Source of the DNA: an uncultured Anaerolineaceae bacterium
GTDB taxonomy: Bacteria; Chloroflexota; Anaerolineae; Anaerolineales; UBA4823
Assembly: GCA_964606085.1 (NCBI GenBank)
Contig: CAZSFD010000001.1
Span: 199,795 to 263,794 of the forward strand
DNA length: 64,000 nt
Direction of reading: 5' to 3'
Part shown: one piece after another, positions 1 to 50,601 of the stretch
Numbering within the stretch: position 1 is the stretch's first letter
Layout: each line of letters begins with the position of its first letter
Translations under genes and position numbers: made by a program
Notes under the pieces: generated by a model
Seen by the model: only the letters and a program-made list of their open reading frames with translations
The model's database searches: none
Told to the model about the DNA's origin: nothing

Positions 1-485
1 GCCCGGGCGGCGGCCCCAAGGCCGGGTTCTTTGCCCTGCCCGATGTGGACGATGAAGTGCTGGTGGTCTTTGAACATGGCGATTTCAACCACCCCTTCGT
101 GTTGGGCGGCATCTGGAATGGCAAAGACCCCCTGCCGCCGAAATCGGACAGCGTGGGCGGCAATGAAATGCCGCAGGTGCGCACATGGTGTTCGCGCAAG
201 GGGCATCGCATCACCATGTACGATAATGCCGATAATAAAATCGAAATCGTCACCGCCGGCAACCAGCAAATTGTGATGGATGACGCCGGCAAGAAAATCA
301 CGGTCAAGACCAGCGGCGGCCTGTCGGTTACGATGGATGACAATGGCTCCAAAGTGAGCATCCAAAGCGGCAGCGAGGTGGAGATCAAAGCGGGCAGCAA
401 TCTCAAAATTCAGGCCAATGGCAACATAGACCTTCAGGCCAGCGGCATGGTCAACATCAAGGGAGCGACGGTCAACCTGAACTGA
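1..485 (+). CDS. VgrG/gp5-like central spike protein of a contractile injection system (C-terminal part; 5' end is upstream of the window)
   Basis: Frame is open from base 3 (PGGGPKAGFFALPDVDDEVLVVFEHGDFNHPFVLGGIWNGKDPLP), the conserved gp5/VgrG OB-fold end. It is followed by a beta-helix-like short-period repeat (KIEIVTAGNQQIVMDDAGKKITVKTSGGLSVTMDDNGSKVSIQSGSEVEIKAGSNLKIQANGNIDLQASG). Confidence 0.8.
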   Translation, partial: PGGGPKAGFFALPDVDDEVLVVFEHGDFNHPFVLGGIWNGKDPLPPKSDSVGGNEMPQVRTWCSRKGHRITMYDNADNKIEIVTAGNQQIVMDDAGKKITVKTSGGLSVTMDDNGSKVSIQSGSEVEIKAGSNLKIQANGNIDLQASGMVNIKGATVNLN

Positions 486-501
486 CGCTCAAGGAGGAAC
501 G

Positions 502-891
502 ATGCCCACACTGGTTACCAACGGCGCCATGCTGACGTGCAGCTTTGGCGTAGCCCCCAGTACGCTGACGGTTGTGCCAGCCAGCATGGTCAACGCCAGC
601 AACCTGCCGGCGGCAACGACGATGGATAACATTGCCATGACCAATATCATGCCTTTTGGCATGTGTACCACCCTCACCAACCCCCAGGTGGCTTCGGCCA
701 CGACTGCCGCATCGGGCGTGCTGACGCCGCAGCCGTGCATCCCCGTCACCACCGCCCCCTGGACGCCCGGCTCGCCCACCGTGATGATCGGTAAAAAGAT
801 GGCGCTGCAAAACACCTGTCAACTGATGTGTGCCTGGGGAGGCGTCATCACCATCACCAACGCCGGGCAGTTTACCGTCAATGTCCCCTAA
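502..891 (+). CDS. DUF4280-type (PAAR-like) spike tip protein
   Basis: 129 aa with GGAGG RBS 6 nt upstream. Pattern VTNGAMLTCSFG..P..L.V..., NIMPFGMC, PQPCIPVTTAPWTPGSPTVMIGKKMALQNTCQLMCAWGGVITITNAGQ matches the conserved Cys/Gly layout of DUF4280. Sits directly after VgrG. Confidence 0.75.
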   Translation: MPTLVTNGAMLTCSFGVAPSTLTVVPASMVNASNLPAATTMDNIAMTNIMPFGMCTTLTNPQVASATTAASGVLTPQPCIPVTTAPWTPGSPTVMIGKKMALQNTCQLMCAWGGVITITNAGQFTVNVP

Positions 892-895
892 AACC

Positions 896-924
896 GTAGC
901 GCAAATTTGAGATTTGCGCCACAA
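896..924. repeat. GCGCAA-type REP-like hairpin (gcgcaaat-ttgag-atttgcgc, followed by cacaa)
   Basis: Stem 899-906 / 912-919 read directly. Related copies at 29509-29549 and 44378-44465 share (t/g)agcgcaa...ttgcgccaca. Confidence 0.6.
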
Positions 925-942
925 TCAAAGAATGGATACATT

Positions 943-1344
943 ATGACCCATGAAATTATCGGGCGCGGCTGGACTTTCCCCCTGAAAATCAATTCGCAGG
1001 GCGGCATTGCGCTGACTTCTGAACGCAATGAGATCGAACAGGCGATGGTGATCATCCTCTCCACGGAGATCGGCCAGCGGGTGATGCGGCCCACCTTTGG
1101 CAGCCGCCTGCACGAACTGGTCTTCGCCCCCAACAACCAGCATACCCTGGCCCTGGCCCGGCGCTACACCGAAGAAGCCCTGCGCATGTGGGAGCCGCGC
1201 ATCACCAACCTCGACATCAAGGTCAGGCCCGACGAAACGCCCGCAAAAGAGTCGCGCCTGCTGATCGAAATTAACTACCAGGTGAAAGCGACCAACGATA
1301 AGCGCAGCCTGGTTTATCCGTTTTATTTACTGCCTGAAGAGTAG
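943..1344 (+). CDS. GPW/gp25-family baseplate wedge protein
   Basis: MTHEIIGRGWTFPL...IALSERNEIEQAMVIILSTEIGQRVMRPTFGSRLHELVFAPN is the gp25/GPW core motif. I prefer the ATG at 943 because the ORF-track start at 907 is a TTG inside the repeat hairpin. Confidence 0.85.
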   Translation: MTHEIIGRGWTFPLKINSQGGIALTSERNEIEQAMVIILSTEIGQRVMRPTFGSRLHELVFAPNNQHTLALARRYTEEALRMWEPRITNLDIKVRPDETPAKESRLLIEINYQVKATNDKRSLVYPFYLLPEE

Positions 1345-1409: not shown

Positions 1410-3416
1410 ATGCCCCTTCCCACCCCCAAACTCGATGACCGCCGCTTTCAAGACCTGGTTGATGAGGCCAAGAAACGCATCCCCCATTACTGCAAGGAGT
1501 GGACCGATCACAACGTCAGCGATCCGGGCGTGACGATGATCGAACTGTTCGCCTGGCTGACCGACCTGACCCTCTTTCGCCTGAACCAGGTGCCTGACCT
1601 GCATTACATCCGCTTTATGGATATGCTGGGTATCACCCTGCAGGAACCGCTGCCGGCCCAGACCGATGTCACCTTTTGGTTGACCAAACCACAAGAGACC
1701 GTCGCCCTCATCCCCGCCGGCACCGAAGTAGCCAGCACACAGACCGAAACCGAGCCATCCATCGTGTTCACCACCGACACCGATTTTCGCGTCCACCCGC
1801 CGCAATGGAACTGTGCCTTCTCCGAAATCACCGGTGAAGACCGCAGCAAGCATTTCGTCAGCCACAATCTCAAACGCCTGCAAACCGGTTTCGAGGGCTT
1901 CGAGGTGTTTTCGCGCACACCACTAATGGACGACGCACTCTATTTTGGCTTCGAAAACGATCTCAGCCATCACATTTTGGGCCTGGAGTTAGAATGCGAC
2001 CCGGCCGGCGGCACCGGCATTGACCCATCCTTCCCCCCTTATGTGTGGGAAGCCTCCACCGGCAGCCTGAAAGAAGCCTGGCAACCCTGCATCGTAGACA
2101 GCGATACCACCAAGGGCCTGAACCATCCGGGCAAAATTATTCTGCACCTGCCGCGCGTGGGCAAGAGCCAGATCAACAACAACGAAATGTTCTGGCTGCG
2201 CGTGCGCATTCAGGAAATTACCCCCGCCCTCAAACGCAATCACATGCAACCCTACCGCCTGACACCACGCATCGAAAAGGTGGCCATCGCCGCCTGGGGC
2301 GGCAGTGTGCCAGCCACACACGCCCAACTGATCAGCCAGGAAATGTTGGGGCGCAGCGATGGTTCGCCGGGGCAGCGCTTCCAGTTGCAAATGCCGCCCG
2401 TTCTAAAGCGCCGGCCAGGCGAAACCCTGGTGCTGCAACTCGAAGGCGAAGCTCCACAACCCTGGAAAGAAGTGCCCGATTTCGCCGATTCTGGCGCAGA
2501 AGACCGCCATTTCTGCCTCGACGGCGTCAGCGGTGAGGTGCGTTTTGGGCCAGCCATCCGCCAGCCCGATGGCACGATCAAGCTGTATGGCGCCATTCCG
2601 CCGCGCAGCGCCAATATCGTCTTCGAGCGCTACCGCCACGGCGGCGGACAAGAAGGCAACGTGGAAGCCGGTGTGCTCAACACGCTCAAGACCGCCATCC
2701 CCTACATCGAACGCGTGGTCAACCGCAAACCGGCCTATGGCGGCGTGGATGCCGAAACGCTCGAAGCTGCTATGGCGCGTGTGCCAGCGTTGCTGCGCTC
2801 ACGCCAGCGTGCGGTGACCGAAGCCGACTACGAATTTCTGGCCCGCCAGGCCCTGCCGGGGGCCATTGGCCGGGTGAAATGCCTGCAACCGCGTGCCGCC
2901 GAGGGCCGCGTGGCCGGGCGGGTAGACCCCAGCCTGGTGTATGTCCTGGTCATCCCGCGCATGAACTTTCCCGCGGGCCGCCTCGACCGCGAACTGCTCA
3001 AAATCAAACCGGAGGACAAAGCCACCCTGACCGCCTACCTGGATGAGCGCCGCCTGTTGACCACCCGCGTGGATGTGCGCGACCCGGCCTATTATTGGGT
3101 TTCGATAGAAGTGCAACTGCGCGCCGCCCCCAACGCCCAACCGACGAAAGTGGAGGCCGACGTGCTGGCGCGCCTGTACGCCTTCATCAACCCCCTCACC
3201 GGCGGGCCAGAGAAAAATGGCTGGCCCTTTGGCCGCTCCATTTACCTTTCAGACATTTATCCCTGCTTGCAGGGCATCGCTGATGTGTTGTTCGTGCGCA
3301 GCGTGGAAATGTACCCCGTACAAGAGGATGGCCGCCGCGGCAATCCGGTGGAATCCATCGAACTGGTGGCGCATGGCGTGGTCGCTTCAGCCTTGCATCA
3401 TGTGACGTTCGTATGA
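1410..3416 (+). CDS. Baseplate J (gp6/gpJ, Afp11-like) baseplate assembly protein
   Basis: 668 aa, GGAGG RBS. N-terminus LDDRRFQDLVDEAKKRIPHYCKEWTDHNVSDPGVTMIELFAWLTDLTLFRLNQVPD is the conserved opening of CIS baseplate-J proteins. Position after gp25 fits the Afp/PVC gene order. Confidence 0.85.
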   Translation: MPLPTPKLDDRRFQDLVDEAKKRIPHYCKEWTDHNVSDPGVTMIELFAWLTDLTLFRLNQVPDLHYIRFMDMLGITLQEPLPAQTDVTFWLTKPQETVALIPAGTEVASTQTETEPSIVFTTDTDFRVHPPQWNCAFSEITGEDRSKHFVSHNLKRLQTGFEGFEVFSRTPLMDDALYFGFENDLSHHILGLELECDPAGGTGIDPSFPPYVWEASTGSLKEAWQPCIVDSDTTKGLNHPGKIILHLPRVGKSQINNNEMFWLRVRIQEITPALKRNHMQPYRLTPRIEKVAIAAWGGSVPATHAQLISQEMLGRSDGSPGQRFQLQMPPVLKRRPGETLVLQLEGEAPQPWKEVPDFADSGAEDRHFCLDGVSGEVRFGPAIRQPDGTIKLYGAIPPRSANIVFERYRHGGGQEGNVEAGVLNTLKTAIPYIERVVNRKPAYGGVDAETLEAAMARVPALLRSRQRAVTEADYEFLARQALPGAIGRVKCLQPRAAEGRVAGRVDPSLVYVLVIPRMNFPAGRLDRELLKIKPEDKATLTAYLDERRLLTTRVDVRDPAYYWVSIEVQLRAAPNAQPTKVEADVLARLYAFINPLTGGPEKNGWPFGRSIYLSDIYPCLQGIADVLFVRSVEMYPVQEDGRRGNPVESIELVAHGVVASALHHVTFV

Positions 3417-4414
3417 AAGGGGGCGTTGTCATGGCTAACCCCACCTACACCCACATTTTCCACATCAGCGGGCCCGAAGAAACGACCAGCCAGTTTCAAA
3501 TCCCCATCGGCATCACCATCATCAGCCGCCAGGAGGGGGTGGGCCTGCACCTGGATAGCAAGTTCATCTCGCGCCGCCACGCCCGGCTGGAGTGCATTGA
3601 CACCGAATGCCATCTCACCGACCTGGGCAGCGAAAACGGCTCCTACATCAACGGTGAACGGCTAGAAGCGCAAACCCCCTACCTGCTGCAACACAACGAT
3701 CAGATCAAAATTGGGCCATTCACCCTGGTGGTCGAAAAAATAGCGCTTGCCGCGGTCGAAGAAGTGGCCGAAACGCCCGCCCCGCCGCCCGAACCCGTGG
3801 CCGCCGAAGAACTGCCCGGCGTGGCTGTGGCCGAAACACCCCCGCCGCCGCCACCGCCCAGCGAACCCCCCACCGCCGAGGCCCAGCCACCTGAAAAAGA
3901 TGCCTTCCTGCCGCCGCCCGGCCTGGGCCTCAAAAGCACCCGCCTGATCAATTACCTGCCAGGCATTTACTTGCCAGGCATTTACCAAAGCGATCTGCTG
4001 GCGCGCTTCCTGGGCATTTTCGAGGCCATTCTGACCCCCATCGAATGGAACATAGACAATTTCGACCTGTATCTTTCTCCCAAAACCTGCCCAAGCACGT
4101 TTTTACCCTGGTTGGCAACCTGGTTTGAGATAGAATTTGATGAAACCTGGAGCGAGGCCAAACGCCGCCAATTTTTGCAAGAAGCCCACCAAATCTACGC
4201 CGGACGCGGCACCCCGCGAGCGCTGCGCCGCACACTCGAAATTTACACCGGCCTCACCCCCACCATTGATGACACCAGCAACGATTTGGAGCCACATACC
4301 TTTCGTGTCTTCTTACCCGTACCCGAAAAAGATGTGCAGCGCACCACCATCGAAGCCCTGATCAACGCCCACAAACCGGCGCATACGGCTTATGAACTTC
4401 ACTTTCAAGAATAA
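3413..4414 (+). CDS. FHA domain fused to a phage tail protein I (gpI/Afp12-type) baseplate domain
   Basis: N-terminal FHA signature (ISRRHARLECIDTECHLTDLGSENGSYINGERL), a Pro-rich linker, then C-terminal YLPGIY..LLARFLGIFEAILTPIEWNIDNFDLYLSPKTCPSTFLPWLATWFEIEFDETWSEAKRRQFLQEAHQIYAGRGTPRALRRTLEIYTG (gpI-type domain). The ATGA overlaps the gpJ stop. An alternative start at 3431 has an AAGGGGG RBS. Confidence 0.75.
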   Translation: MKGGVVMANPTYTHIFHISGPEETTSQFQIPIGITIISRQEGVGLHLDSKFISRRHARLECIDTECHLTDLGSENGSYINGERLEAQTPYLLQHNDQIKIGPFTLVVEKIALAAVEEVAETPAPPPEPVAAEELPGVAVAETPPPPPPPSEPPTAEAQPPEKDAFLPPPGLGLKSTRLINYLPGIYLPGIYQSDLLARFLGIFEAILTPIEWNIDNFDLYLSPKTCPSTFLPWLATWFEIEFDETWSEAKRRQFLQEAHQIYAGRGTPRALRRTLEIYTGLTPTIDDTSNDLEPHTFRVFLPVPEKDVQRTTIEALINAHKPAHTAYELHFQE

Positions 4415-6554
4415 GCTCAAATCTCCTTTCGCACGGGAATTCCTCGTCATTCACATCCCCGATGGCCCCACCCGCCACGTTTCCCTGCGCGCCGCAACGC
4501 TCGAAATGGGTCGGGCAGAGGCCAACCAGATTGTCATAGACCATCCCTCCATCTCGCGCCGCCATGCCCGCCTCACCCGCCAGGGCGATGGCCTGCTGAT
4601 CGAAGACCTGGCCTCAGCCAATGGCACCTGGGTCAACGACCAGACCCTGCAACCCTACAAACCAGCCCCCATCGCCCGCGGGCAGTCCTTCTGGGTCGGA
4701 AAAGTAGAAGTTACCTACAAGCATCAAGATTTTACACTGCCGATAGTGGGCGTGTTCTTTGCGCTGCTATGCTGCTGCGCCGCCGTCCAACTGATCATCC
4801 GGCTGATCCCGCAGCCCGATGTGTTCGCCTGCGATGCACCCTCCATTTTGATCGTCCAGCCAGACCCTAACCAACGTCCCGCCGCAGCCGACGAACCCGC
4901 CCGGCCCACCGCCACCCGCCCCCCCACCGGGCCAACCCCCGCCGAAACGCAAGCAGCCGGCGAGCCAACCTCCGCCCCGCTCATCTTCACCGATGCGCTG
5001 ACCTACACCGTGCAAAACTTCTTCGATCTGCCCTTCCCCTACGCCGGCGACCGCAGCGAGTGTACCTACGGCACGCTCGAAGAGTTCCAACAGGCCAATC
5101 AGCGGCGCTACCTGGGCGGGCGCATCAACAGCTTCTTCGACCACTTCTACCCCAAATATCCCTACGACCCCGAACGCCAGGGCCGCGAAAGCCCCGACCC
5201 GCCCGAAGCCAAAAACCTGCTGCTGTTCACCGGCGAACTGAGCGCCAACGACGATTACAGCGGCCACCCCGGTTACGATTACTCGTATGAATACACCACC
5301 AGCGAGGGAAAGTACACCACACCCGTGTGCGCGGCCGCCAATGGCATCATCGCCGCGGTCGGAGGTGACGAGCAGGTTGGGCTGTATGTCAAGATCAATC
5401 ACTTCGCCAGGGTCAACGGCGTCAGCTATCGCTATCAAACCTTTTACTTGCACCTCAAACAAGATGAATTTTTCGATCAGATGCTCGGCCGAGAAGGCCA
5501 AATCATCAACGTCCACGAGCGCATTGGCACCATCGGCAACACCGGGCCATCCACCGGGCCGCACCTGCACTTCGAGGTGCGCGCCGATCTGAACAACGAC
5601 AATCGCTTCGATCTGAGCGAAGTGGTGGACCCCTATGGCTACATCCCCAGCCGCGAATACCCGGTGGACAAATGGCCGCGTCCCAGCGACTACCTGTGGA
5701 TTCATCCGTGGGGAGTTTTCCAGTCTATTGAAGGCAATGCCCAAAGCAACGCCGGCGCCGAAAAAGGCATCGGAGGCGAGTTTGCGGCGGCGGTGAGCCG
5801 GCCCGCCCGTCTGTGCGCTCCGCCCAACGCTCTGCCATCGGGCGGGTTGATCAGCTTCTCCATTTCGCTCTCCCCGCCACCGGCAGATGGGCTGATCAGC
5901 ATCGGTCGAGCGGCGATCATTGCCGTGATGAACCAGGGGCAATTTATCGAAACCTTCGCCGAGCCAGTGCGGGTGATGATCCCCTTTCCCAAAACCGAAC
6001 TGGATTACGTCAAAGATAACGAACGCCTGCGCATCTACCGCCTGCAAACCACCCAACAAGCCGATAAAGATGTATCGGTGTGGATTGCGCTGCAAACCGA
6101 ACTGGATCGCGAACATGCCGTCGCCATGGCCTACACCGACAGCCCCGGCCAATTTGCCCTGCTGGGCGAAGCCACCCAAGATACCTACCCCCCCACCACC
6201 GAGATCACCCTGGATGGCCCACAAAGCCCCGAGGGCACCTTCTACGCCAATGTCACGGTCAGCTTAGCGGCCACCGACGGCCAAAGCGGGGTAGACTCGA
6301 TCTATTACAGCCTGGATGGCCGCAACTGGCTGCTGTATAGCGAGCCATTTGTGATCTCGCCCAACGGCATCCCCGAAGCACTGCCAGAGACAGAAGATGA
6401 ATCTTTTCTGGGCGGGCCGGGCCGCTTTCAGGTGCTGGCCTCAGCCACCGATAAGGCCGGTAACAGCGAGGAGCAGCTCAAAGGCAAGCCGGCAGCCGTT
6501 TACTTCATCATTGACCCGCGCAAAGAACCCCAAAGAGGCTATCACTGGAGGTAA
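4392..6554 (+). CDS. FHA - TM - M23 (lysostaphin-type) metallopeptidase membrane protein
   Basis: FHA motif (GRAEANQIVIDHPSISRRHARLTRQGDGLLIEDLASANGTWVND) and one hydrophobic helix (LPIVGVFFALLCCCAAVQLIIRLI). M23 zinc motifs HxxxD (GHPGYDYSY) and HxH (GPHLHFEV). C-terminal beta-sandwich-like motif (YYSLDGRNWLLYSEPFVI). Confidence 0.8.
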   Translation: MNFTFKNKLKSPFAREFLVIHIPDGPTRHVSLRAATLEMGRAEANQIVIDHPSISRRHARLTRQGDGLLIEDLASANGTWVNDQTLQPYKPAPIARGQSFWVGKVEVTYKHQDFTLPIVGVFFALLCCCAAVQLIIRLIPQPDVFACDAPSILIVQPDPNQRPAAADEPARPTATRPPTGPTPAETQAAGEPTSAPLIFTDALTYTVQNFFDLPFPYAGDRSECTYGTLEEFQQANQRRYLGGRINSFFDHFYPKYPYDPERQGRESPDPPEAKNLLLFTGELSANDDYSGHPGYDYSYEYTTSEGKYTTPVCAAANGIIAAVGGDEQVGLYVKINHFARVNGVSYRYQTFYLHLKQDEFFDQMLGREGQIINVHERIGTIGNTGPSTGPHLHFEVRADLNNDNRFDLSEVVDPYGYIPSREYPVDKWPRPSDYLWIHPWGVFQSIEGNAQSNAGAEKGIGGEFAAAVSRPARLCAPPNALPSGGLISFSISLSPPPADGLISIGRAAIIAVMNQGQFIETFAEPVRVMIPFPKTELDYVKDNERLRIYRLQTTQQADKDVSVWIALQTELDREHAVAMAYTDSPGQFALLGEATQDTYPPTTEITLDGPQSPEGTFYANVTVSLAATDGQSGVDSIYYSLDGRNWLLYSEPFVISPNGIPEALPETEDESFLGGPGRFQVLASATDKAGNSEEQLKGKPAAVYFIIDPRKEPQRGYHWR

Positions 6555-9121
6555 TGATCATGCCCGATCTGGTTGGACAAGCTCTGAATCGCTATCAGAT
6601 GGTCAGTTTGCTGGGCGAAGGCGGCATGGGGGCGGTGTACAAAGCCCAGGATACCGCCCTCAAGCGCGAAGTGGCCGTCAAGGTGCTGCACAGCCATTTC
6701 GCCCGCCAGCCCGATTTTCGCGAACGCTTTTTGCAAGAGGCGCGCACCGCCGCCCGCCTGGATCATGCCGGCATCGTCAAGGTGTTCGATTTCGGCGAGG
6801 CGCAAGGGCAGCTTTACATTGTGATGGAACTGATCGCCGGGGAGAACCTGCAAGATTTACTCACCCGTCAATGGGGGCAAGGACAGGGCTTAACGCCGCA
6901 GGAAGCCAGCCAACTGACCCGCCAGATTGCTTTGTCGCTCGACTATTTGCACAAACAGGGCATTTTGCACCGCGACATCAAACCGGCCAATATCATGCTC
7001 AAGCCCGAATCGCTCACCGGCCTGCCCTACCGCCCGGTGTTGACCGACCTGGGCCTGGCGCGCCTGCTGGATGGCCCACGCCTGACCCAGGATGGCGGCT
7101 CGATGGGCACGCCGGCCTATATGTCGCCAGAGCAGGCCAGCGGCATGCCCACCGACGCCCGCTCGGATGTCTATTCGCTGGGCATTCTGCTCTTTGAACT
7201 GGCTACCGGGCGGCTGCCGTTTCCCATTCACACCATCACCGAGGCCATCCGCTACCACACCCGCGAAGTTCCCCCCTCGCCGCGCACCTTCCGCCCCGAG
7301 TTACCCCAAAACCTGGAACAGGTAATCTTGCGCGCCATTGCCAAAGAACCGGCCAGCCGCTTTGCCGATGCCGCCGCCCTGGCCCAGGCGTTGGAACAGG
7401 CCATCCTGACCTTTCCACCGCCGGGCATGCGCGCCGCGGCCAGCCCGTCCATGCCCGCCAGCGCCCCGGCCGGGCAGCAGCGCCCGCCAGCCGCCAAAGC
7501 GCCAGGCAGTGCTTCCATCCCGCCCGATACCAACGGCATCCAGGTCATCGCCAAAAATCACCCCAACCGGTTCATCCCGATCAAGCCCAAAATCAAAGAC
7601 ATGGTCGAGATGTCCATCGGACGCGACGAAAGCGCCGATATCTGCCTCGACAGCCCCGGCGTCTCACGCAAGCATGCCAAGCTGACCTACGATGGCAGCG
7701 AGTTTTATCTCACCGACCTGAACAGCACCAACCGCACTTTCCTGGGCGATACCGAGCTGTTGCCCGGCGTGGCCGAGCGCTGGAACCCCGAAAAGGTGGC
7801 CCGCATTGGCACGTTTGCCTTGCAACTGGTGTTGGCCGGGCAAAAAGCCGCCCCCATCCAGCCCCCTTCCCAGCCGCCGGGCGAACGCGCTGGCTTCCGG
7901 CGCACCAACGGCAGCCTGGTGCCGGTCAGCCCCGGCTTTACGCAGATGGAAAACCGCATTTGGGTTGACCTGGAAGAAGAAGACCTGACCGTGGAGGCCG
8001 GCGGACGGGTGCCGCTGACGGTCAACCTGCTCAACCAGGGCGGCTTCGTAGACCAGTTCCACGTCTCGGTCAAGGGTATTCCGGCTGCCTGGTATTCGGT
8101 GCAGCCCCCGGTCGTCAACCTGATGCCCGGCGACCAGGCCACCGCGCAGATCACCTTTCACCCGCCGCGCAACCCCAGCAGCCAGGCCAAAGCCTACCCG
8201 CTGGAAATTCGCGTGACGCCCGAAAAGCCGCCCAAGAAAGTCAGCACCGCCACTGGCACGCTGACCGTCTTGCCCTTCTACCAATCGCGCAGCGAAATGC
8301 ACCCGATGAAAATCAAAGGGCGCAAACCGGCGCGGGTGACCATTCAAAACCAGGGCAACATCGCCGATACCTACACCGCCTACCCCGCTGACCGGGCCGA
8401 CGAACTGATCTTCGACCCGCCGCAAAAGCAGGTGCAGGTGGCCGAAGGCCAGCAGGCGGCGGTCGAATTTCGCGCCCGCCCGCGTGCCACGCGCATCTTC
8501 GGCATGAAGCAGACCCATTCCTTCACCATCCAGGTCAGTTCGGCGCAAGGCGGCAACCCCACCCAACACATGGGCGAGTTCACCAGCACGGCCCTGATCC
8601 CGCCCTGGCTGCCGATCTTCTTGATGGGGTTTTGCGCCCTGCTGATGCTGGCTGCCTCGCAACTGATCCCCCTGGTGATGCCCAAGACAACGCCCACCAG
8701 CACCGGCGTAATCGTCTTGACGGTGATCCCCGATACCCTGACGCCCTCCCCCCTGCCCGATACCCCCACCGCCCCACCCAGCGACACTCCCACCCTGCTA
8801 GAACTGTGCGCCGGCGCACCCGAACCGCGGGTGGAGAAAAATGGCCTGGGGCGTGTCGGCGAAGACGACCCCCGCCCACTGCGCGTGCGCAAAACCGCCG
8901 AATACACCGGCGATAACGACGAAAACGTGATCGCCAAACTGCCGCCCGGGACGCAATTCCGCATCCTGGATGGTCCCGAATGCGTGCAAACGCCAACGGG
9001 ATCGAAGGTGCTGATGTGGAAAATCGAAGTCATCGGCGGCATGGTCTTCGACGATGGCACCACCCAGGGCTGGGTGGTTGAAGCAGATAGCTCTGGCTAT
9101 TTCATCGAACCGTTGAAATAA
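6554..9121 (+). CDS. Ser/Thr protein kinase with internal FHA domain, two beta-sandwich repeats, TM helix and SH3b-like ectodomain
   Basis: Hanks kinase motifs (LGEGGMGAVYKA, VAVKVL, HRDIKPANIML, DLGLAR, GTPAYMSPEQ). FHA motif (SIGRDESADICLDSPGVSRKHAKLTYDGSEFYLTDLNSTNRTF). TM helix (LIPPWLPIFLMGFCALLMLAASQLIPLVM). The GGAGG RBS favours the ATG at 6560. Confidence 0.85.
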   Translation: MIMPDLVGQALNRYQMVSLLGEGGMGAVYKAQDTALKREVAVKVLHSHFARQPDFRERFLQEARTAARLDHAGIVKVFDFGEAQGQLYIVMELIAGENLQDLLTRQWGQGQGLTPQEASQLTRQIALSLDYLHKQGILHRDIKPANIMLKPESLTGLPYRPVLTDLGLARLLDGPRLTQDGGSMGTPAYMSPEQASGMPTDARSDVYSLGILLFELATGRLPFPIHTITEAIRYHTREVPPSPRTFRPELPQNLEQVILRAIAKEPASRFADAAALAQALEQAILTFPPPGMRAAASPSMPASAPAGQQRPPAAKAPGSASIPPDTNGIQVIAKNHPNRFIPIKPKIKDMVEMSIGRDESADICLDSPGVSRKHAKLTYDGSEFYLTDLNSTNRTFLGDTELLPGVAERWNPEKVARIGTFALQLVLAGQKAAPIQPPSQPPGERAGFRRTNGSLVPVSPGFTQMENRIWVDLEEEDLTVEAGGRVPLTVNLLNQGGFVDQFHVSVKGIPAAWYSVQPPVVNLMPGDQATAQITFHPPRNPSSQAKAYPLEIRVTPEKPPKKVSTATGTLTVLPFYQSRSEMHPMKIKGRKPARVTIQNQGNIADTYTAYPADRADELIFDPPQKQVQVAEGQQAAVEFRARPRATRIFGMKQTHSFTIQVSSAQGGNPTQHMGEFTSTALIPPWLPIFLMGFCALLMLAASQLIPLVMPKTTPTSTGVIVLTVIPDTLTPSPLPDTPTAPPSDTPTLLELCAGAPEPRVEKNGLGRVGEDDPRPLRVRKTAEYTGDNDENVIAKLPPGTQFRILDGPECVQTPTGSKVLMWKIEVIGGMVFDDGTTQGWVVEADSSGYFIEPLK

Positions 9122-9127
9122 GCAATC

Positions 9128-10381
9128 ATGGATTACCCCATGCAGCCACAACAAATTGATCGCTACCAGGTACAGGCAGAAATCGCCCGCGGCGGCATGG
9201 CGATTATTTACCTGGCCTACGACCCGCAAAACCAGCGCCAGGTGGCAATCAAGGTGTTGCCGCGCGAATACTTGATGGATCGTCAATTTCGCGTGCGCTT
9301 CCAACGCGAGATCGAGATCATGGTAGCCATCCGGCATTCGGGCATCGTGCCGATTTATGGCTACGGGCAATACCAGGGCCAGCTTTACCTGGTGATGCGC
9401 TACATGGCCGGCGGCTCGCTGGATGACCGCCTGCAAAAACAGGGCAGCATGTCGTTGGCCGAAACCGCCGCGCTGATCGAACAGATTGCCCCCATTCTCG
9501 ATTTCGCCCATTCCCAGGGGATCATTCACCGCGATTTGAAACCGGGCAACATCTTGTTCGATACCCAGGGCAAAGCCTTTATCAACGATTTTGGCATCGC
9601 CCGGCTGACCGAGCAATCGAACTATGCCGCGCTGACCGGCAAAGCGCTGATCGGCTCACCGGCGTACATGAGCCCCGAACAGGGGCGCATTGGCCTGAAT
9701 GTGGATGCCCGCAGCGACATTTACTCGGTGGGCGCGATGGTTTTTGAGATGCTGACGGGGCAGCTTCCGTATGACGCCGAAAGCGCAATGAAGCTGGTAA
9801 TGAAGCATCTGACGGACCCCATCCCGAACATCCTGGCGTTGAACCCGGCCTTACCCCCGTCGTGCCAGGCGATCATCGAAAAAGTGCTGGCCAAAGAGCC
9901 TGAGCAGCGTTACGCCAGCGTTTCAGAACTGGCCGCAGCCCTGCGCCAGGCGGTTAATGCGGGCAGCCGGGCCGCCGCAGCCTACCCATCTACCCCGCCG
10001 CAAGGGCCGCGCCAGCCCCGGGACGCCGCGCCGCCGGTAAGCCGACCAGCCAGCCAGCCGGTTAGCCGACCAGCCCCGGGGTCAGCGAAGCCAGCCGGCA
10101 TACGACTGCCCTCGTTTCTCAATTCATTTCGCCACGCCATCTTGCAGCAGTTTCGCATGCCGCGGCTGCTCGGTGGGCCAGCGCTGCCTTACATCACCCT
10201 GCCATCCTTCCTGCGCCCCATCACCAGCGCCCTGGGAATTTCGAGTACGATCAGCCTGCCCGGCAACAAGCTCTGGTTAGGGCTGGCCGTGCTGATCGCC
10301 GTGGCGGTGCTGCTCGTTCTGTGCGGCGGGGTGATGGCAAGCTGCTACATCCTTTTTCGTATTTTTGCCACGCCTATCTAA
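9128..10381 (+). CDS. Ser/Thr protein kinase, C-terminally membrane anchored
   Basis: ARGGMAIIYLA, VAIKVL, HRDLKPGNILF, DFGIAR, GSPAYMSPEQ. Pro-rich spacer and terminal hydrophobic helix (LWLGLAVLIAVAVLLVLCGGVMASCYILF). Confidence 0.85.
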   Translation: MDYPMQPQQIDRYQVQAEIARGGMAIIYLAYDPQNQRQVAIKVLPREYLMDRQFRVRFQREIEIMVAIRHSGIVPIYGYGQYQGQLYLVMRYMAGGSLDDRLQKQGSMSLAETAALIEQIAPILDFAHSQGIIHRDLKPGNILFDTQGKAFINDFGIARLTEQSNYAALTGKALIGSPAYMSPEQGRIGLNVDARSDIYSVGAMVFEMLTGQLPYDAESAMKLVMKHLTDPIPNILALNPALPPSCQAIIEKVLAKEPEQRYASVSELAAALRQAVNAGSRAAAAYPSTPPQGPRQPRDAAPPVSRPASQPVSRPAPGSAKPAGIRLPSFLNSFRHAILQQFRMPRLLGGPALPYITLPSFLRPITSALGISSTISLPGNKLWLGLAVLIAVAVLLVLCGGVMASCYILFRIFATPI

Positions 10382-10403
10382 TCACTTGCAAAGGGTTATC
10401 ACC

Positions 10404-12665
10404 ATGAAAAACGCTTCACTCGTCCACCGCCTGATACTCGCGACATTTGCCATCCTGCTCCTGCTGCTGCCGCACCCCACCGCCGCCCAGAGCGAGGTGC
10501 GAGCGTACATCAGCAGTGTAGATTGCTCTGCCTTTCCCACGATCAGCCTGACCGTGCGGGCGGTGGATGCGCAAGGACGGGTGATCACCGATAACCTGGA
10601 TACCGCCTCGTTTGCCCTGTTCGATAATGCCACCCAGGTGACCCAACCGGCCGTTATGGCTACCGAGACGGGGGCAAAGCACGTCATCTTTTCCGTTGAC
10701 CGGCGCGGCGAAAACACCAACCTGGAAAAATACCAGGCGGCGATCCGCAATATCATGAGCGAATTTACCAGCCAGTATGTGATTGACGACACCGACATCG
10801 TCAGCATCGTCTCGCACATCTCTGGCAGCAAACCCGATGTGGTGCTGCAACCCACCAGCAACAAAACCGACGTGCTGAATGCCATCAGCGCGCTGTCCTT
10901 CGCCCGCATCAGCGGGACAAAAAGCGACTTAAGCGGGCTGGAGGCCGTTTTTAACGATCTGGTGACACAAAAACCCGGGCGGCGAAACACGGTCATCTTC
11001 CATTTCAGCCGCTTTCTCGAAACCCCCTCCGCTCCCCTGCAACAGGTAGACCCGGCCAAGAACCTGGGCGCCAAAATGGCCAGCGAAAATATCCGCGTCT
11101 ACACCTTCCAGACCGAAACATCTGGCGACGCGCGCTTTTACCGCGCCTTTCAAGAACTGGCCGCCAGCAGCCAGGGCGCTTACCTGCTGATTGATAAACC
11201 CGGCTACGAAGGCGAACTGGCCCGCATCTTCCGCGAGGTCGAACAGGGCAGCAAGGTCTTCCGGCTGCAATTCACCAGCACCGCATACGTGGCCGACCAC
11301 ACCATCAGCCTGGCCGCCCCCGGCGCAGGCCCCGAACGGGCCATGGACTCACGCACTTGCATCGGCATAGACATTCAAGACCCCCAGGTCGCTTTCGATT
11401 ACCCGCCCAACAGCCCCGGCCTGAAAATCCAGTTGAAGCCCGACGACACCTCCATCACCGTCCGGGCGCATGTAGATTGGCCCGATAAAAAGCCACGCAC
11501 AATAACCACGGCGGAGTTATTGGTGAACGGCACGGTCATCGAAACCAAAACCGATCTGCCGCCCACCGACCCCCTGTATTTCATTGTCAGCACAGACGAT
11601 CTCCTGGCCTCCAAGTCGCTGGCGAACATTGCCCTCGAAGTGCGCGTGGCCGATGCCTGGGGGCGCAGCGCCTCCAACTGGGTCAGCTTCGACCTCAGCG
11701 CCGCGCCGACCCCGGTCGTCACACCCACGGCAGCGCCCCGGCCAACCACGGAAGGGCCGGTAATCGTGGTTGCGCCTGGCGCGTGTGATGAAGGCTTATC
11801 GGTCAATTGCATCAAAGCGTGGGTGATCTCCAACTGGATTTTATTGCTGATCCTGGTGGTGGTCGGTGGGATGTTCCTGGTAATGTTCATCTTGCTCATT
11901 GCCACCCGCCACCAACTGGCCAAACTCTCTGCCCCGGCGCGCGAGGCCATTGGCAAACGCGCCGCCCAGGTGCGCGACCAGGTGCGCAAAACCCTGCTGG
12001 GCGGGGCCTCGCACCAGCAGCAAGCCGTGGCCTACCTGAATGTGCTGGTGGCGCGCAGCGACCGCGTTGGCTCGAAAATCGAAATTTACAACAACCGCAC
12101 CACCCTCGGGCGCGACCCCTCGCTGACCGATGTGCAGCTCTACAACCCCGAAGATAAAACCAGCGTCAGCGGCCTGCACTGCACCATTTTTTACGACCCC
12201 GGCCAGGGCAAATTCTTCATCACCGATGATAACTCAACCAATGGCAGCTTCCTGAACGGCAAGCGCCTGCCCTCCAACGAGCCGCACGAACTGAAAGAGA
12301 ATGATGAGATTACGCTGGGCGATATTTACCGGCAAGGCGCCAAGCTGCGCTTCGAACTGGCCGCCGGGCAGCCGGCGCACTCCATCGAAGATGAAATGAT
12401 CCCTATCGAAAATGACTTCAATGTAGATTTGGATGGCTCGGGGTCTTACGCCAACGAAGTGACCCAGGCCGCCGTCGATTCGATGCCGCCACCGCCCCCT
12501 CCCCAACCCAAGAAAGAAATGTCTGATGAAACCATCCCCGGCTATCGCGACGAAGACATCCTTTCTTACCCTGAACAACCCGCTGCGCCCCCGCCAGGCC
12601 GCCCGGCCAACAAACCGCCGCAGAAAAAAGGCAAAGATAAAAGCTGGATAGATGACCTGAGCTAA
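10404..12665 (+). CDS. Signal peptide - vWA-like ectodomain (degenerate MIDAS) - TM - cytoplasmic FHA protein
   Basis: N-terminal signal (LILATFAILLLLLPHPTAAQS). Beta-sandwich plus vWA-like layout (ISSVDCSAFPTISLTVRAVDAQGRVI... VIFSVDRRGEN in place of DxSxS). TM helix (WILLLILVVVGGMFLVMFILLIA). C-terminal FHA (TTLGRDPSLTDVQLY...VSGLHCTIFYDPGQGKFFITDDNSTNGSFLNGKRL). Start taken at the ATG after the upstream stop. Confidence 0.7.
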   Translation: MKNASLVHRLILATFAILLLLLPHPTAAQSEVRAYISSVDCSAFPTISLTVRAVDAQGRVITDNLDTASFALFDNATQVTQPAVMATETGAKHVIFSVDRRGENTNLEKYQAAIRNIMSEFTSQYVIDDTDIVSIVSHISGSKPDVVLQPTSNKTDVLNAISALSFARISGTKSDLSGLEAVFNDLVTQKPGRRNTVIFHFSRFLETPSAPLQQVDPAKNLGAKMASENIRVYTFQTETSGDARFYRAFQELAASSQGAYLLIDKPGYEGELARIFREVEQGSKVFRLQFTSTAYVADHTISLAAPGAGPERAMDSRTCIGIDIQDPQVAFDYPPNSPGLKIQLKPDDTSITVRAHVDWPDKKPRTITTAELLVNGTVIETKTDLPPTDPLYFIVSTDDLLASKSLANIALEVRVADAWGRSASNWVSFDLSAAPTPVVTPTAAPRPTTEGPVIVVAPGACDEGLSVNCIKAWVISNWILLLILVVVGGMFLVMFILLIATRHQLAKLSAPAREAIGKRAAQVRDQVRKTLLGGASHQQQAVAYLNVLVARSDRVGSKIEIYNNRTTLGRDPSLTDVQLYNPEDKTSVSGLHCTIFYDPGQGKFFITDDNSTNGSFLNGKRLPSNEPHELKENDEITLGDIYRQGAKLRFELAAGQPAHSIEDEMIPIENDFNVDLDGSGSYANEVTQAAVDSMPPPPPPQPKKEMSDETIPGYRDEDILSYPEQPAAPPPGRPANKPPQKKGKDKSWIDDLS

Positions 12666-12674
12666 CGCTTGCAT

Positions 12675-13598
12675 ATGGCAGAAACGTACATTGGCAATTT
12701 CGTGGTCGAAAAAACGCTCTCGAAGAGCGGTATGTCGTATATCTACCTGGCGCGCCTGGCCGAACAACCCAACTACAAAGTGGCCCTGAAGATTCACCTG
12801 GAAAGCGAAGGCCCGCGCAACACCTATCAAGATTTACTGCGCCACGAAGCCGAGCATCTGGCCCATTTCAGGCATCCCAACATCATGCGCGTTTTCCCCC
12901 TGCAACTGCCCACCGGCAAGGTGGTCTATTGCGCCCGCGCCACCGATTTACCCGAAAACCCGTGGTATTTCACCATGGAATATATCCCCGGCGGTGATCT
13001 CAGCAAATACATCAAGAACTTCACCAAAATGCCCATCCCCTGGATCATCGAATTTTTCTACCAACTGCTCATCACCGTCAAATACATTCATCAAATGGGA
13101 TACGGACATTGCGACCTGAAGCCGGAGAACATCCTGCTGCGTGAGCCGCCCAGCCCCCTGCGCACGCCCCAACCCATCCTGACCGACTTCGGCACGGCGC
13201 AGCGCGTGGAAGACATCATTGCCCAGCCGACCCGCTCCCTGCGCTACTCGCCGCCCGAAATCATCATGGCGTACACCCGCAAAGACATCGAAGCCAAAAA
13301 TTTCCCCCTGTATGCCGCCAAAATAGACATCTGGTCGTTGGGCGCGCTGCTCTTCGAGCTGCTCACCGGGCAGCAATTGTTCAGCCAGCGCAAAGAAGCC
13401 GAAATCACCTCGTCCATTTTGCGCGGCGAACTGCGTAAAATTCAAACGCTGCGCCGCGAGGCGCACGAATCGCTCGATAAAGTGCTCAGCGTCATGCTGC
13501 AAACACAGCCAGAAGAGCGCCCCGAAATTGACGACATCATCGAGGCTATCGAAGAGCGCATCAGCAGCGTCAGGCCGCCGCGCATCCCGCTGGCCTGA
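12675..13598 (+). CDS. Soluble Ser/Thr kinase-like protein (non-RD, degenerate Gly loop)
   Basis: VALKIH, GHCDLKPENILL (HCD instead of HRD), DFGTAQ, YSPPEI. The glycine loop reads LSKSGMSYIY. No TM segment. Confidence 0.75.
   Translation: MAETYIGNFVVEKTLSKSGMSYIYLARLAEQPNYKVALKIHLESEGPRNTYQDLLRHEAEHLAHFRHPNIMRVFPLQLPTGKVVYCARATDLPENPWYFTMEYIPGGDLSKYIKNFTKMPIPWIIEFFYQLLITVKYIHQMGYGHCDLKPENILLREPPSPLRTPQPILTDFGTAQRVEDIIAQPTRSLRYSPPEIIMAYTRKDIEAKNFPLYAAKIDIWSLGALLFELLTGQQLFSQRKEAEITSSILRGELRKIQTLRREAHESLDKVLSVMLQTQPEERPEIDDIIEAIEERISSVRPPRIPLA

Positions 13599-49155: not shown

Positions 49156-50601
<1,446 letters not shown>

Follow-up and report, generated by a model that had tools for sequence, protein, structure and literature searches.

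A 64,000-nucleotide stretch of DNA from an uncultured Anaerolineaceae bacterium (assembly GCA_964606085.1, contig CAZSFD010000001.1; the whole stretch is called the window here) encodes, directly after the baseplate genes of a contractile injection system (CIS), a 720-residue protein that joins an FHA domain, a single transmembrane (TM) helix, a linker, an M23 peptidase domain and C-terminal beta domains in one chain. We propose that this protein is an optional accessory of the CIS, namely a membrane-tethered M23 endopeptidase whose FHA domain would be recruited to kinase-made phosphothreonine (pThr) sites and which would act together with the injection system. We put the probability of this reading at about one half.

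Architecture and conserved residues of the FHA-M23 protein

The gene and the parts of its product are located in the window as follows.

4392..6554, + strand: gene for the FHA-TM-linker-M23-beta-domain protein, 720 aa (open reading frame with ATG start, Pfam, alignment, AlphaFold2 model)
4428..4733, + strand: FHA domain, predicted to be cytoplasmic, residues 13-114 (Pfam, fold, alignment with GarA, conservation)
4743..4805, + strand: single TM helix, residues 118-138 (hydropathy, 25/25 homologues, AlphaFold2 helix)
4806..5003, + strand: juxtamembrane Cys motif (C147, DVFACDAP) and Pro-rich disordered linker, predicted to be extracytoplasmic; holds the C7 run at 4919-4925
5004..5726, + strand: M23 metalloendopeptidase domain, residues 205-445 (GRINSFFDH strand motif, ~30-aa insertion, H292/D296, H354, H391/H393)
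5799..6521, + strand: two C-terminal beta-sandwich/barrel domains, residues 470-710 (C475 at the start; OmpL47-type domain at 619-660)

Pfam places the FHA domain (PF00498) at residues 39-100 (E = 3.6e-17, 63 bits against a cutoff of 20.7) and Peptidase_M23 (PF01551) at residues 306-399 (E = 9.8e-15, 55 bits against a gathering cutoff of 28.7), and the last domain exceeds the NCBIfam cutoff for the OmpL47-type beta-barrel domain (64 bits against 40). An AlphaFold2 model of the 720-aa protein, built on 25 homologues and with a mean predicted local distance difference test (pLDDT) score of 77.9, predicts a confident FHA sandwich at residues 13-114 (pLDDT >90), a helix at 122-138, a disordered linker at 161-200, an M23 core at ~205-445 and beta-rich C-terminal domains at ~470-600 and 602-710. 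The Pro-rich spacer as a whole covers residues ~139-204 and forms a tether of ~65 residues. In fold searches the FHA domain matches that of Rv0020c (3po8) with a TM-score of 0.85 and the M23 domain matches ShyA in the PDB. When the full model was used as the query, the PDB returned domain-level matches only, and viral structures gave generic M23 and FHA matches with no full-length or tail-lysin-specific relative.

The FHA residues that contact pThr (G40-R41, S55-R56-R57-H58 and N77-G78) align with the GR, SRRH and NG motifs of GarA and are nearly invariant in the family. In the M23 domain, the motifs HPGYD (H292, D296) and HLHFEV (H391, H393) and the third catalytic histidine, H354, can be aligned with their counterparts in zoocin A, TagE and ShyA; across the 25 aligned homologues H292, D296, H354 and H393 are invariant and H391 is kept in at least 90%. 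Active M23 enzymes (LytM, lysostaphin, zoocin A, ShyA and MepM) share HxxxD, HxH and the third histidine with the window protein, which differs from them in adding a long N-terminal cytoplasmic domain and TM helix, an insertion of ~30 residues before HxxxD, a flanking pair of conserved cysteines and the OmpL47-type C-terminal domain. The domain is predicted to be catalytically competent and not a degenerate regulator of the LytM type. An original prediction, made from the DNA letters before any searches, had proposed the order of FHA domain, one TM helix, Pro-rich spacer, M23 domain and C-terminal beta region, with both zinc motifs intact. Pfam, hydropathy and the AlphaFold2 model bear out this order, and the zinc-motif residues, far from being substituted, are conserved family-wide.

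Gene boundaries and reading frame

The same prediction gave the gene as 4392-6554 with a 23-nt overlap with the baseplate gene before it, and both points hold: the ATG is at 4392 and the stop codon of the P2_I baseplate gene at 4412-4414. The 23-nt overlap is repeated in L056, a relative with 51% identity (loci are labelled here with L numbers), and in L057 the overlap is 50 nt. The 3' end is coupled too, with TAATG forming a stop/start overlap with the kinase gene that follows and GGAGG just before it. The M23 gene thus overlaps its neighbours at both ends.

A contig from a second assembly of the same organism (JGI Ga0484859_0001354; L052, 9387-11545) is 99.97% identical over 14.2 kb, and its sole indel is a 4-nt deletion that shortens the C7 run at window positions 4919-4925 to C3, within the linker. 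This C3 allele splits the gene into an FHA-TM product of 201 aa and an M23 product of 514 aa, as called on the JGI contig, and it would be the ground for holding that the gene is decaying or the fusion an assembly artefact, with separate FHA-TM and M23 proteins encoded. We find this scarcely credible. The fusion is the normal state, because records in NCBI, JGI and Logan give the 720-aa product intact, on a 270-kb contig, and FHA and M23 occur in one chain in ~59 homologous clusters at 90% identity, all aligned members of which are collinear. The C3 allele could be an assembly error or a real population variant, possibly a phase-variable one.

Predicted membrane topology and a conserved cysteine pair

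The window protein has no N-terminal signal peptide, and its FHA domain precedes the single strongly hydrophobic segment (residues 118-136, Kyte-Doolittle 2.74). Exactly one strong TM segment lies between FHA and M23 in 25/25 aligned homologues, in most of which the number of Lys and Arg residues on the N side of the helix equals or exceeds that on the C side, a modest positive-inside bias. At their C-terminal ends homologues carry modules of a kind typically wall-associated and extracytoplasmic, namely SH3_3, DUF3048 or Big domains.

Two cysteines flank the M23 domain, the core of which is nearly Cys-free. C147 (nt 4830-4832) lies in a motif of the approximate form [FIV]-C-D-Q-P-x-M, 10-30 residues past the TM helix, in all 86 of the 86 members, and C475 (nt 5814-5816, 'LCAPPGS') stands directly after M23. 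Both are found in 84 of 92 scored sequences, the other eight being truncated entries or having linkers beyond the search window. In the full-length model the segment around C147 is ordered (pLDDT ~70, strand at 152-155), but a model restricted to residues 137-450, and so without the C-terminal domains, shows it disordered. Because C475 is co-conserved and the C147 motif loses its modelled order without the C-terminal domains, the simplest reading is that the two residues probably form a disulfide, which would fit an oxidising, extracytoplasmic location. Cysteine-switch latency, with C147 on the catalytic zinc, is disfavoured by the co-conservation of C475 and by the loss of order in a model that keeps M23. 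A lipoprotein reading of C147 was rejected, since the residue comes 10-30 positions after the TM helix and L017 and L024 hold genuine lipoboxes besides the motif.

A topology with the N-terminus inside and the C-terminus outside is therefore well supported as a prediction from hydropathy, the modest positive-inside bias, domain logic and the cysteine pair. The M23 domain is accordingly predicted to lie outside, where it had been placed originally; the lack of a signal peptide, the position of FHA before the helix, the wall-type C-terminal domains and the cysteines all point to this side.

The architecture also bears on whether the protein could be an antibacterial effector, that is, an M23 toxin that the spike and tube would carry, on or inside them, into neighbouring cells. 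M23 and other peptidoglycan hydrolases are known type VI secretion system (T6SS) effectors, and effector genes often stand at the 3' end of CIS clusters. We nevertheless regard delivery as very improbable: the conserved hydrophobic helix and the N-terminal cytoplasmic FHA domain are present in 25/25 homologues, the product is 720 aa long with a multidomain ectodomain, no adjacent immunity gene is recognisable, and family members exist without any CIS nearby.

The injection system and its gene cluster

The genes around the M23 gene that belong to the cluster are listed below.

1..1344, + strand: 3' end of the VgrG spike gene (to 485), PAAR-like DUF4280 gene (502-891) and gp25 sheath initiator gene (907-1344) (Pfam)
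1410..3416, + strand: baseplate protein Cis11 (Baseplate_J) (Pfam; S. coelicolor CIS 9gtp_1K, E = 5.9e-148)
3413..4414, + strand: baseplate protein Cis12/P2 gpI with an added N-terminal FHA domain and Pro-rich linker (Pfam FHA and Tail_P2_I; CIS12_fam core)
6554..9121, + strand: Ser/Thr kinase-FHA-Ig-like module-TM (690-708)-ectodomain of ~147 aa; its start overlaps the M23 stop
9128..10381, + strand: Ser/Thr kinase with a C-terminal TM anchor (386-404)
10365..12665, + strand: signal/TM-extracytoplasmic VWA-TM (494-512)-cytoplasmic FHA protein; start codon uncertain
12669..13598, + strand: soluble Ser/Thr kinase
13632..15773, + strand: PP2C phosphatase-TM (286-304)-Pro/Thr-rich ectodomain; last gene of the cluster

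The window opens inside the spike gene, and the remaining CIS genes lie upstream, as seen on another contig of the same organism (L058). The order there is an eCIS_core-domain protein, a Pvc16-type cap, the sheath, two gp19-type tube proteins and an 887-aa protein, followed by CIS_tube, VgrG, DUF4280, gp25, Baseplate_J and FHA-P2_I. The 887-aa protein (L058 4924-7587) is without a Pfam match, and its gene comes after the second tube gene and before CIS_tube, the place of a tape-measure gene; the S. coelicolor CIS cluster has been reported without a tape-measure gene.

Cis11 matches Cis11 of the extended S. coelicolor CIS (PDB 9gtp) from end to end (E = 5.9e-148), and the sheath matches Streptomyces sheaths with E-values of ~1e-131 to 1e-134 (best 4.4e-134, S. 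coelicolor CIS), whereas Afp, PVC, AlgoCIS and the cyanobacterial thylakoid-anchored CIS (tCIS) give far lower scores. No tail-fibre gene is present in the CIS cluster, counting both the window and the upstream genes on L058. Judged from its genes, the CIS is of the Streptomyces-like type IId, tail-fibre-less and not a classical extracellular CIS (eCIS), and it is probably cytoplasmic. Type IId Streptomyces-like CIS are cytoplasmic and mediate cell death in Streptomyces. Members of the Chloroflexota/Deinococcota branch of type IId have been imaged as free, unanchored intracellular particles (PMC12998442).

The signalling genes extend the baseplate operon downstream, and unrelated housekeeping genes come after them. 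In total the cluster encodes four FHA domains, three Ser/Thr kinases and one PP2C phosphatase, mostly membrane-anchored. One of the FHA domains is part of the baseplate itself: Streptomyces Cis12 (9gtp_E, 190 aa) aligns with residues 186-329 only of the window P2_I protein, and the N-terminal FHA domain is thus an addition. The original prediction missed this wider phospho-signalling set, comprising the FHA domain on Cis12, the three kinases, the PP2C and the VWA-FHA protein.

A hydrolase beside such a machine might also serve as a dedicated lysis factor, in which case the tethered M23 enzyme, triggered by a kinase, would degrade the sacculus globally and let an extracellular CIS escape, much as tailocins use holin-endolysin cassettes. 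The cluster has no recognisable holin, endolysin or spanin, M23 enzymes serve as phage lysins, and an eCIS_core-domain gene and a Pvc16-type cap are present, all of which would suit this role. It is nonetheless an unlikely one for a CIS of the Streptomyces cytoplasmic type that has no fibre gene for target binding and the Chloroflexota relatives of which were seen as unanchored intracellular particles (PMC12998442). The TM helix is strongly hydrophobic (Kyte-Doolittle 2.74) and comes after an FHA domain of 115 aa, unlike release anchors of the signal-arrest-release (SAR) type; the gene has no holin-like neighbour, and most loci of the lineage lack an M23 gene. Release of eCIS particles, one of two roles envisaged in the original prediction, becomes less likely for the same reasons, namely the homology to the Streptomyces cytoplasmic type and the absence of tail fibres.

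Distribution of the family and its link to injection systems

In a full scan of 1.84 billion representatives the family proved to be small: ~60 clusters at 50% identity match the M23 core and C-terminal region strongly, and ~23 include FHA. We then surveyed one genome per species for family motifs (conserved peptide patterns), which gave 51 loci. One generic M23 match aside, nearly all of these come from metagenome-assembled genomes (MAGs) of Chloroflexota (Anaerolineales, Thermoflexales, Ardenticatenales and Promineifilaceae). A literature search found no description of FHA, kinases or M23 in loci of eCIS or cytoplasmic CIS (cCIS). The claim that the architecture was not one recognised from described systems is therefore correct as regards the searchable literature, but the family is a recurrent one that databases annotate automatically.

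The loci were sorted by searching their open reading frames with the window's proteins, and CIS linkage was judged within each locus neighbourhood. In group A, which consists of 14 genome loci spanning Anaerolineales, Thermoflexales and Ardenticatenales, CIS_tube-VgrG-gp25-Cis11-Cis12 lie upstream of the M23 gene, which usually adjoins the baseplate genes directly, though sometimes a kinase, VWA-FHA or Ig-protein gene stands between. The M23 gene also follows cis11-cis12 on five other contigs (the window, L056, L057, L074 and L129), among which L056 and L057 are the closest metagenomic relatives (51% and 42% identity) and have the gene order and overlapping frames of the window. Among the 28 loci for which 8 kb or more of upstream sequence was available, 10 are linked to a CIS. 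By our estimate a random gene would be expected after a baseplate well under 1% of the time, so this proportion is far above expectation, yet it is a minority. In a neighbour-joining tree of the M23 core (no support values), CIS-linked members occupy deep branches of both main clades, and the distances between baseplate proteins co-vary with those between M23 proteins (Mantel r = 0.46, p ~0.002, phylogeny ignored).

The remaining settings are of two kinds. Group B (L031, L033, L036, L038-L040, L042-L045 and L054) is found in Promineifilaceae-like genomes, where up to three VWA-TM-FHA genes in divergent orientation share a module with FHA-TM-M23, FHA-Ig-TM, a further VWA-FHA and one or two PP2C genes; in L054 no kinase is visible within 20 kb. 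Group C copies stand alone. The only family locus not labelled Chloroflexota, L037, has the gene order of group B on a 6.8-kb contig of a 'Zixiibacteriota' MAG and could reflect mis-binning or horizontal transfer. In the genome of one stand-alone copy (L053), a lone 509-aa Baseplate_J-family gene (5958-7487) lies between alaS and ruvX/mltG, ~2.5 kb upstream of the M23 gene; no other CIS gene is nearby, and phmmer with the window Cis11 does not detect it.

The position after the baseplate genes in related loci

For the reciprocal test, we took the 80 best metagenomic relatives of Cis11, of which 34 loci had enough downstream sequence (metagenomic loci not dereplicated). In 25 of these 34, Cis12 is followed by a protein in which an Ig-like module of ~230 aa leads directly into a TM helix and a variable ectodomain, often with an FHA domain or a kinase and FHA domain in front. 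The same Ig-like module occurs in the CIS-free module of group B. An FHA domain on Cis12 co-varies with a Ser/Thr kinase downstream (12/18 versus 0/16, Fisher p = 3.7e-5, uncorrected for phylogeny), and it may be of more significance than the M23 gene itself.

Two CIS-linked Ardenticatenales loci (L025 and L029) connect the two kinds of protein, as their M23 proteins have the Ig-like module and TM helix in place of FHA and TM; in others the M23 protein has a short cytoplasmic tail only. Given the prevalence of proteins with an Ig-like module, a TM helix and a variable part (Ig-TM-X) and the existence of these Ig-TM-M23 variants, the position after the baseplate is, on predicted domain content, that of a modular bitopic class with a cytoplasmic adaptor, a TM helix and an interchangeable ectodomain, M23 being one such ectodomain. 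The Ig-like-TM proteins are candidates for a class of CIS-to-membrane adaptors in the slot taken by CisA in Streptomyces.

Weighing the link to the injection system

Several observations count against a function tied to the CIS. Most family members are found away from a CIS (18 of the 28 informative loci are not linked), and conversely the M23 gene is present in only 2 of the 34 informative CIS loci related to that of the window. The group B clade (26-33% identity) sits in its VWA-FHA x3/FHA-M23/FHA-Ig-TM/VWA-FHA/PP2C module with no CIS and with housekeeping genes upstream, within 10 kb in L054, and group C copies are surrounded by housekeeping genes. Since members of both groups lie in CIS-free settings, the FHA-M23 protein can function with no CIS beside it. 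Common vertical descent could by itself account for the Mantel correlation, and the usual post-baseplate proteins, either kinase-FHA-Ig-TM or Ig-TM-X, may be the true membrane adaptors. The association with CIS that was first proposed for this gene is thus recurrent, with 14 genome loci, five contigs, a conserved order and overlapping genes behind it, and at the same time partial. Because 18/28 family loci are unlinked and only 2/34 related CIS loci hold M23, the gene would be an optional CIS accessory and not a general solution to the passage of CIS through the wall.

These settings could also be explained if the protein were a general, kinase-controlled wall-remodelling enzyme or autolysin of filamentous Chloroflexota, the output of an envelope module of kinases, PP2C, FHA and VWA proteins by analogy with the way PknB-FhaA/FipA governs wall synthesis in mycobacteria. 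Its adjacency to the CIS would then come from shared regulation or operon hitch-hiking. We take this as the main alternative, possible but somewhat doubtful. It would account well for group B, in which FHA-M23, FHA-Ig-TM, VWA-FHA and PP2C genes occur together with housekeeping genes upstream and no CIS, for the lone group C copies near mltG/yceG, ruvX, alaS and others, and for the rarity of M23 in CIS loci. Each of the 51 genome loci comes from a different assembly, a distribution that suggests a single copy in each genome, the pattern expected of a housekeeping gene, and the best NCBIfam match of the FHA domain is FhaB/FipA (55 bits, below the equivalog cutoff of 125). What such an enzyme would not explain is CIS linkage across at least three orders with conserved gene order and overlapping frames, or the presence of CIS-linked members on deep branches of both main clades. 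The Ig-TM-M23 variants, moreover, share their cytoplasmic module with other post-baseplate proteins of the CIS lineage, and the FHA domain on the baseplate protein wires the CIS into the same signalling set.

Comparison with known systems

When the window protein is compared with CisA (SCO4242), the likeness lies in position and predicted topology. CisA, which is bitopic, has its N-terminus inside and C-terminus outside; contraction and cell death depend on it, and a contact with Cis11 is predicted (PMC12237407). The window gene likewise comes directly after type IId baseplate genes, in the slot of eCIS tail fibres; its product is predicted to be bitopic, with a cytoplasmic N-terminus and a folded C-terminal domain outside, and the associated CIS structural proteins are close homologues. 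The domains differ: by its published description the cytoplasmic part of CisA is largely disordered, its ectodomain resembles a solute-binding protein, and it contains neither FHA nor a peptidase (PMC12237407), whereas the window protein has FHA and M23/OmpL47 domains. In most related Chloroflexota loci the CisA slot holds Ig-TM-X or kinase-FHA-Ig-TM proteins and not M23, and a 2026 paper in the ISME Journal found no close cisA homologues in Roseiflexus.

The T6SS offers precedents for both halves of the protein. TagX of Acinetobacter and Burkholderia is a membrane-anchored endopeptidase encoded in T6SS loci that remodels the wall, and MltE is a lytic transglycosylase recruited to remodel the wall for the machine (PMC13584744). 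Like these, the window protein would be a peptidoglycan hydrolase that exposes its catalytic domain on the outer side of the cytoplasmic membrane, accessory and not core, and, as for TagX, encoded with a contractile machine. TagX, however, is a VanY-type L,D-endopeptidase with two TM helices that belongs to the trans-envelope T6SS of diderms; the window protein has an M23 domain, one TM helix and FHA, and its machine is of the eCIS/cCIS type (Pvc16 cap, eCIS_core, Cis11/12) and has no TssJLM. On the signalling side, PpkA (a kinase with a periplasmic VWA domain), PppA (a PP2C) and Fha1/TagH gate T6SS assembly through threonine phosphorylation, and recruitment of FHA to phosphorylated membrane components triggers assembly (PMC13584744). 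The window cluster similarly encodes Hanks-type kinases, a PP2C, FHA proteins and a VWA ectodomain with a contractile machine, but here FHA domains are fused to a baseplate wedge protein, a peptidoglycan hydrolase, a kinase and a VWA protein, and there are three kinases. Against the TagH model (TIGR03354), the FHA proteins of the cluster score 31-42 bits and the hydrolase 31.4, below the cutoff of 120.25. By analogy, then, the window protein would combine a TagH-like reader and a TagX-like enzyme in one chain while being a member of neither family.

A further parallel comes from mycobacteria, in which the membrane Ser/Thr kinases PknA and PknB, the PP2C PstP and the FHA adaptors FhaA and FhaB (FipA) regulate peptidoglycan enzymes. 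There too kinases, PP2C and FHA go together with a peptidoglycan enzyme. The mycobacterial FHA proteins, however, are adaptors without a hydrolase attached, in a pathway that has no CIS; the window system differs in the FHA-hydrolase fusion and in its CIS context.

A possible mechanism and its implications

If the hydrolase is indeed an accessory of the CIS, the membrane-anchored Ser/Thr kinases, opposed by the membrane PP2C, would create pThr sites at the membrane, and the extracytoplasmic VWA and other ectodomains would possibly feed information to the kinases. The FHA domain of the hydrolase and that fused to Cis12 would be recruited to one phospho-hub, so that docking or firing of the CIS and cleavage of peptidoglycan cross-links would coincide in place and time. 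The two C-terminal beta domains, of a wall- or surface-binding type, would face the cell wall together with M23. The wall might thereby be breached where the tube strikes, or firing might be turned into lysis and regulated cell death.

A broader version of this model, which we offer tentatively and consider possible but not probable, is that Chloroflexota type IId CIS are phospho-gated: FHA-Cis12 and the modular bitopic slot proteins would form a membrane docking hub, and FHA-TM-M23 would couple docking or firing to a local breach of the peptidoglycan. Were this so, the system could be a kinase-triggered device for cell suicide or for the severing of filaments in multicellular filamentous organisms. 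It would also be the first signal-to-firing pathway for a CIS other than the T6SS, and the first wall hydrolase built into one.

To our knowledge, CisA is the only adaptor known for tail-fibre-less cytoplasmic CIS and is lacking in Chloroflexota. The locus bears on how such systems find the membrane, fire and lead to lysis. It presents a testable wiring diagram made up of membrane kinases and a phosphatase, an FHA domain fused to the baseplate and a second FHA domain on an intact wall hydrolase that occupies the CisA slot. Should the link prove real, both phosphorylation-gated assembly and wall remodelling as found in the T6SS would extend to another phage-tail-like branch and to filamentous bacteria of the monoderm type. 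Otherwise the family would still represent an uncharacterised way to place a peptidoglycan hydrolase under direct Ser/Thr-kinase control.

Other features of the window

The PADLOC defence models gave no match for the hydrolase, Cis12, the VWA-FHA protein or the PP2C, and the kinases match generic kinase models only. The vWA 'ternary' conflict systems (vWA-MoxR-VMAP; PMC7159879) were considered as a related type of locus and ruled out, as FHA and PP2C figure there in passing and M23 and phage tails are unmentioned. Scans of the window for tRNA genes and Rfam families found nothing. Directly after the PP2C gene, at 16096-18645, lies a gene for a UvrA-like ABC ATPase of 849 aa, named excinuclease ABC subunit A in the source, with no evident link to the CIS. 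Further along, at 49156-50424 on the - strand, the window encodes an N6/N4 DNA methylase with a RAMA domain.

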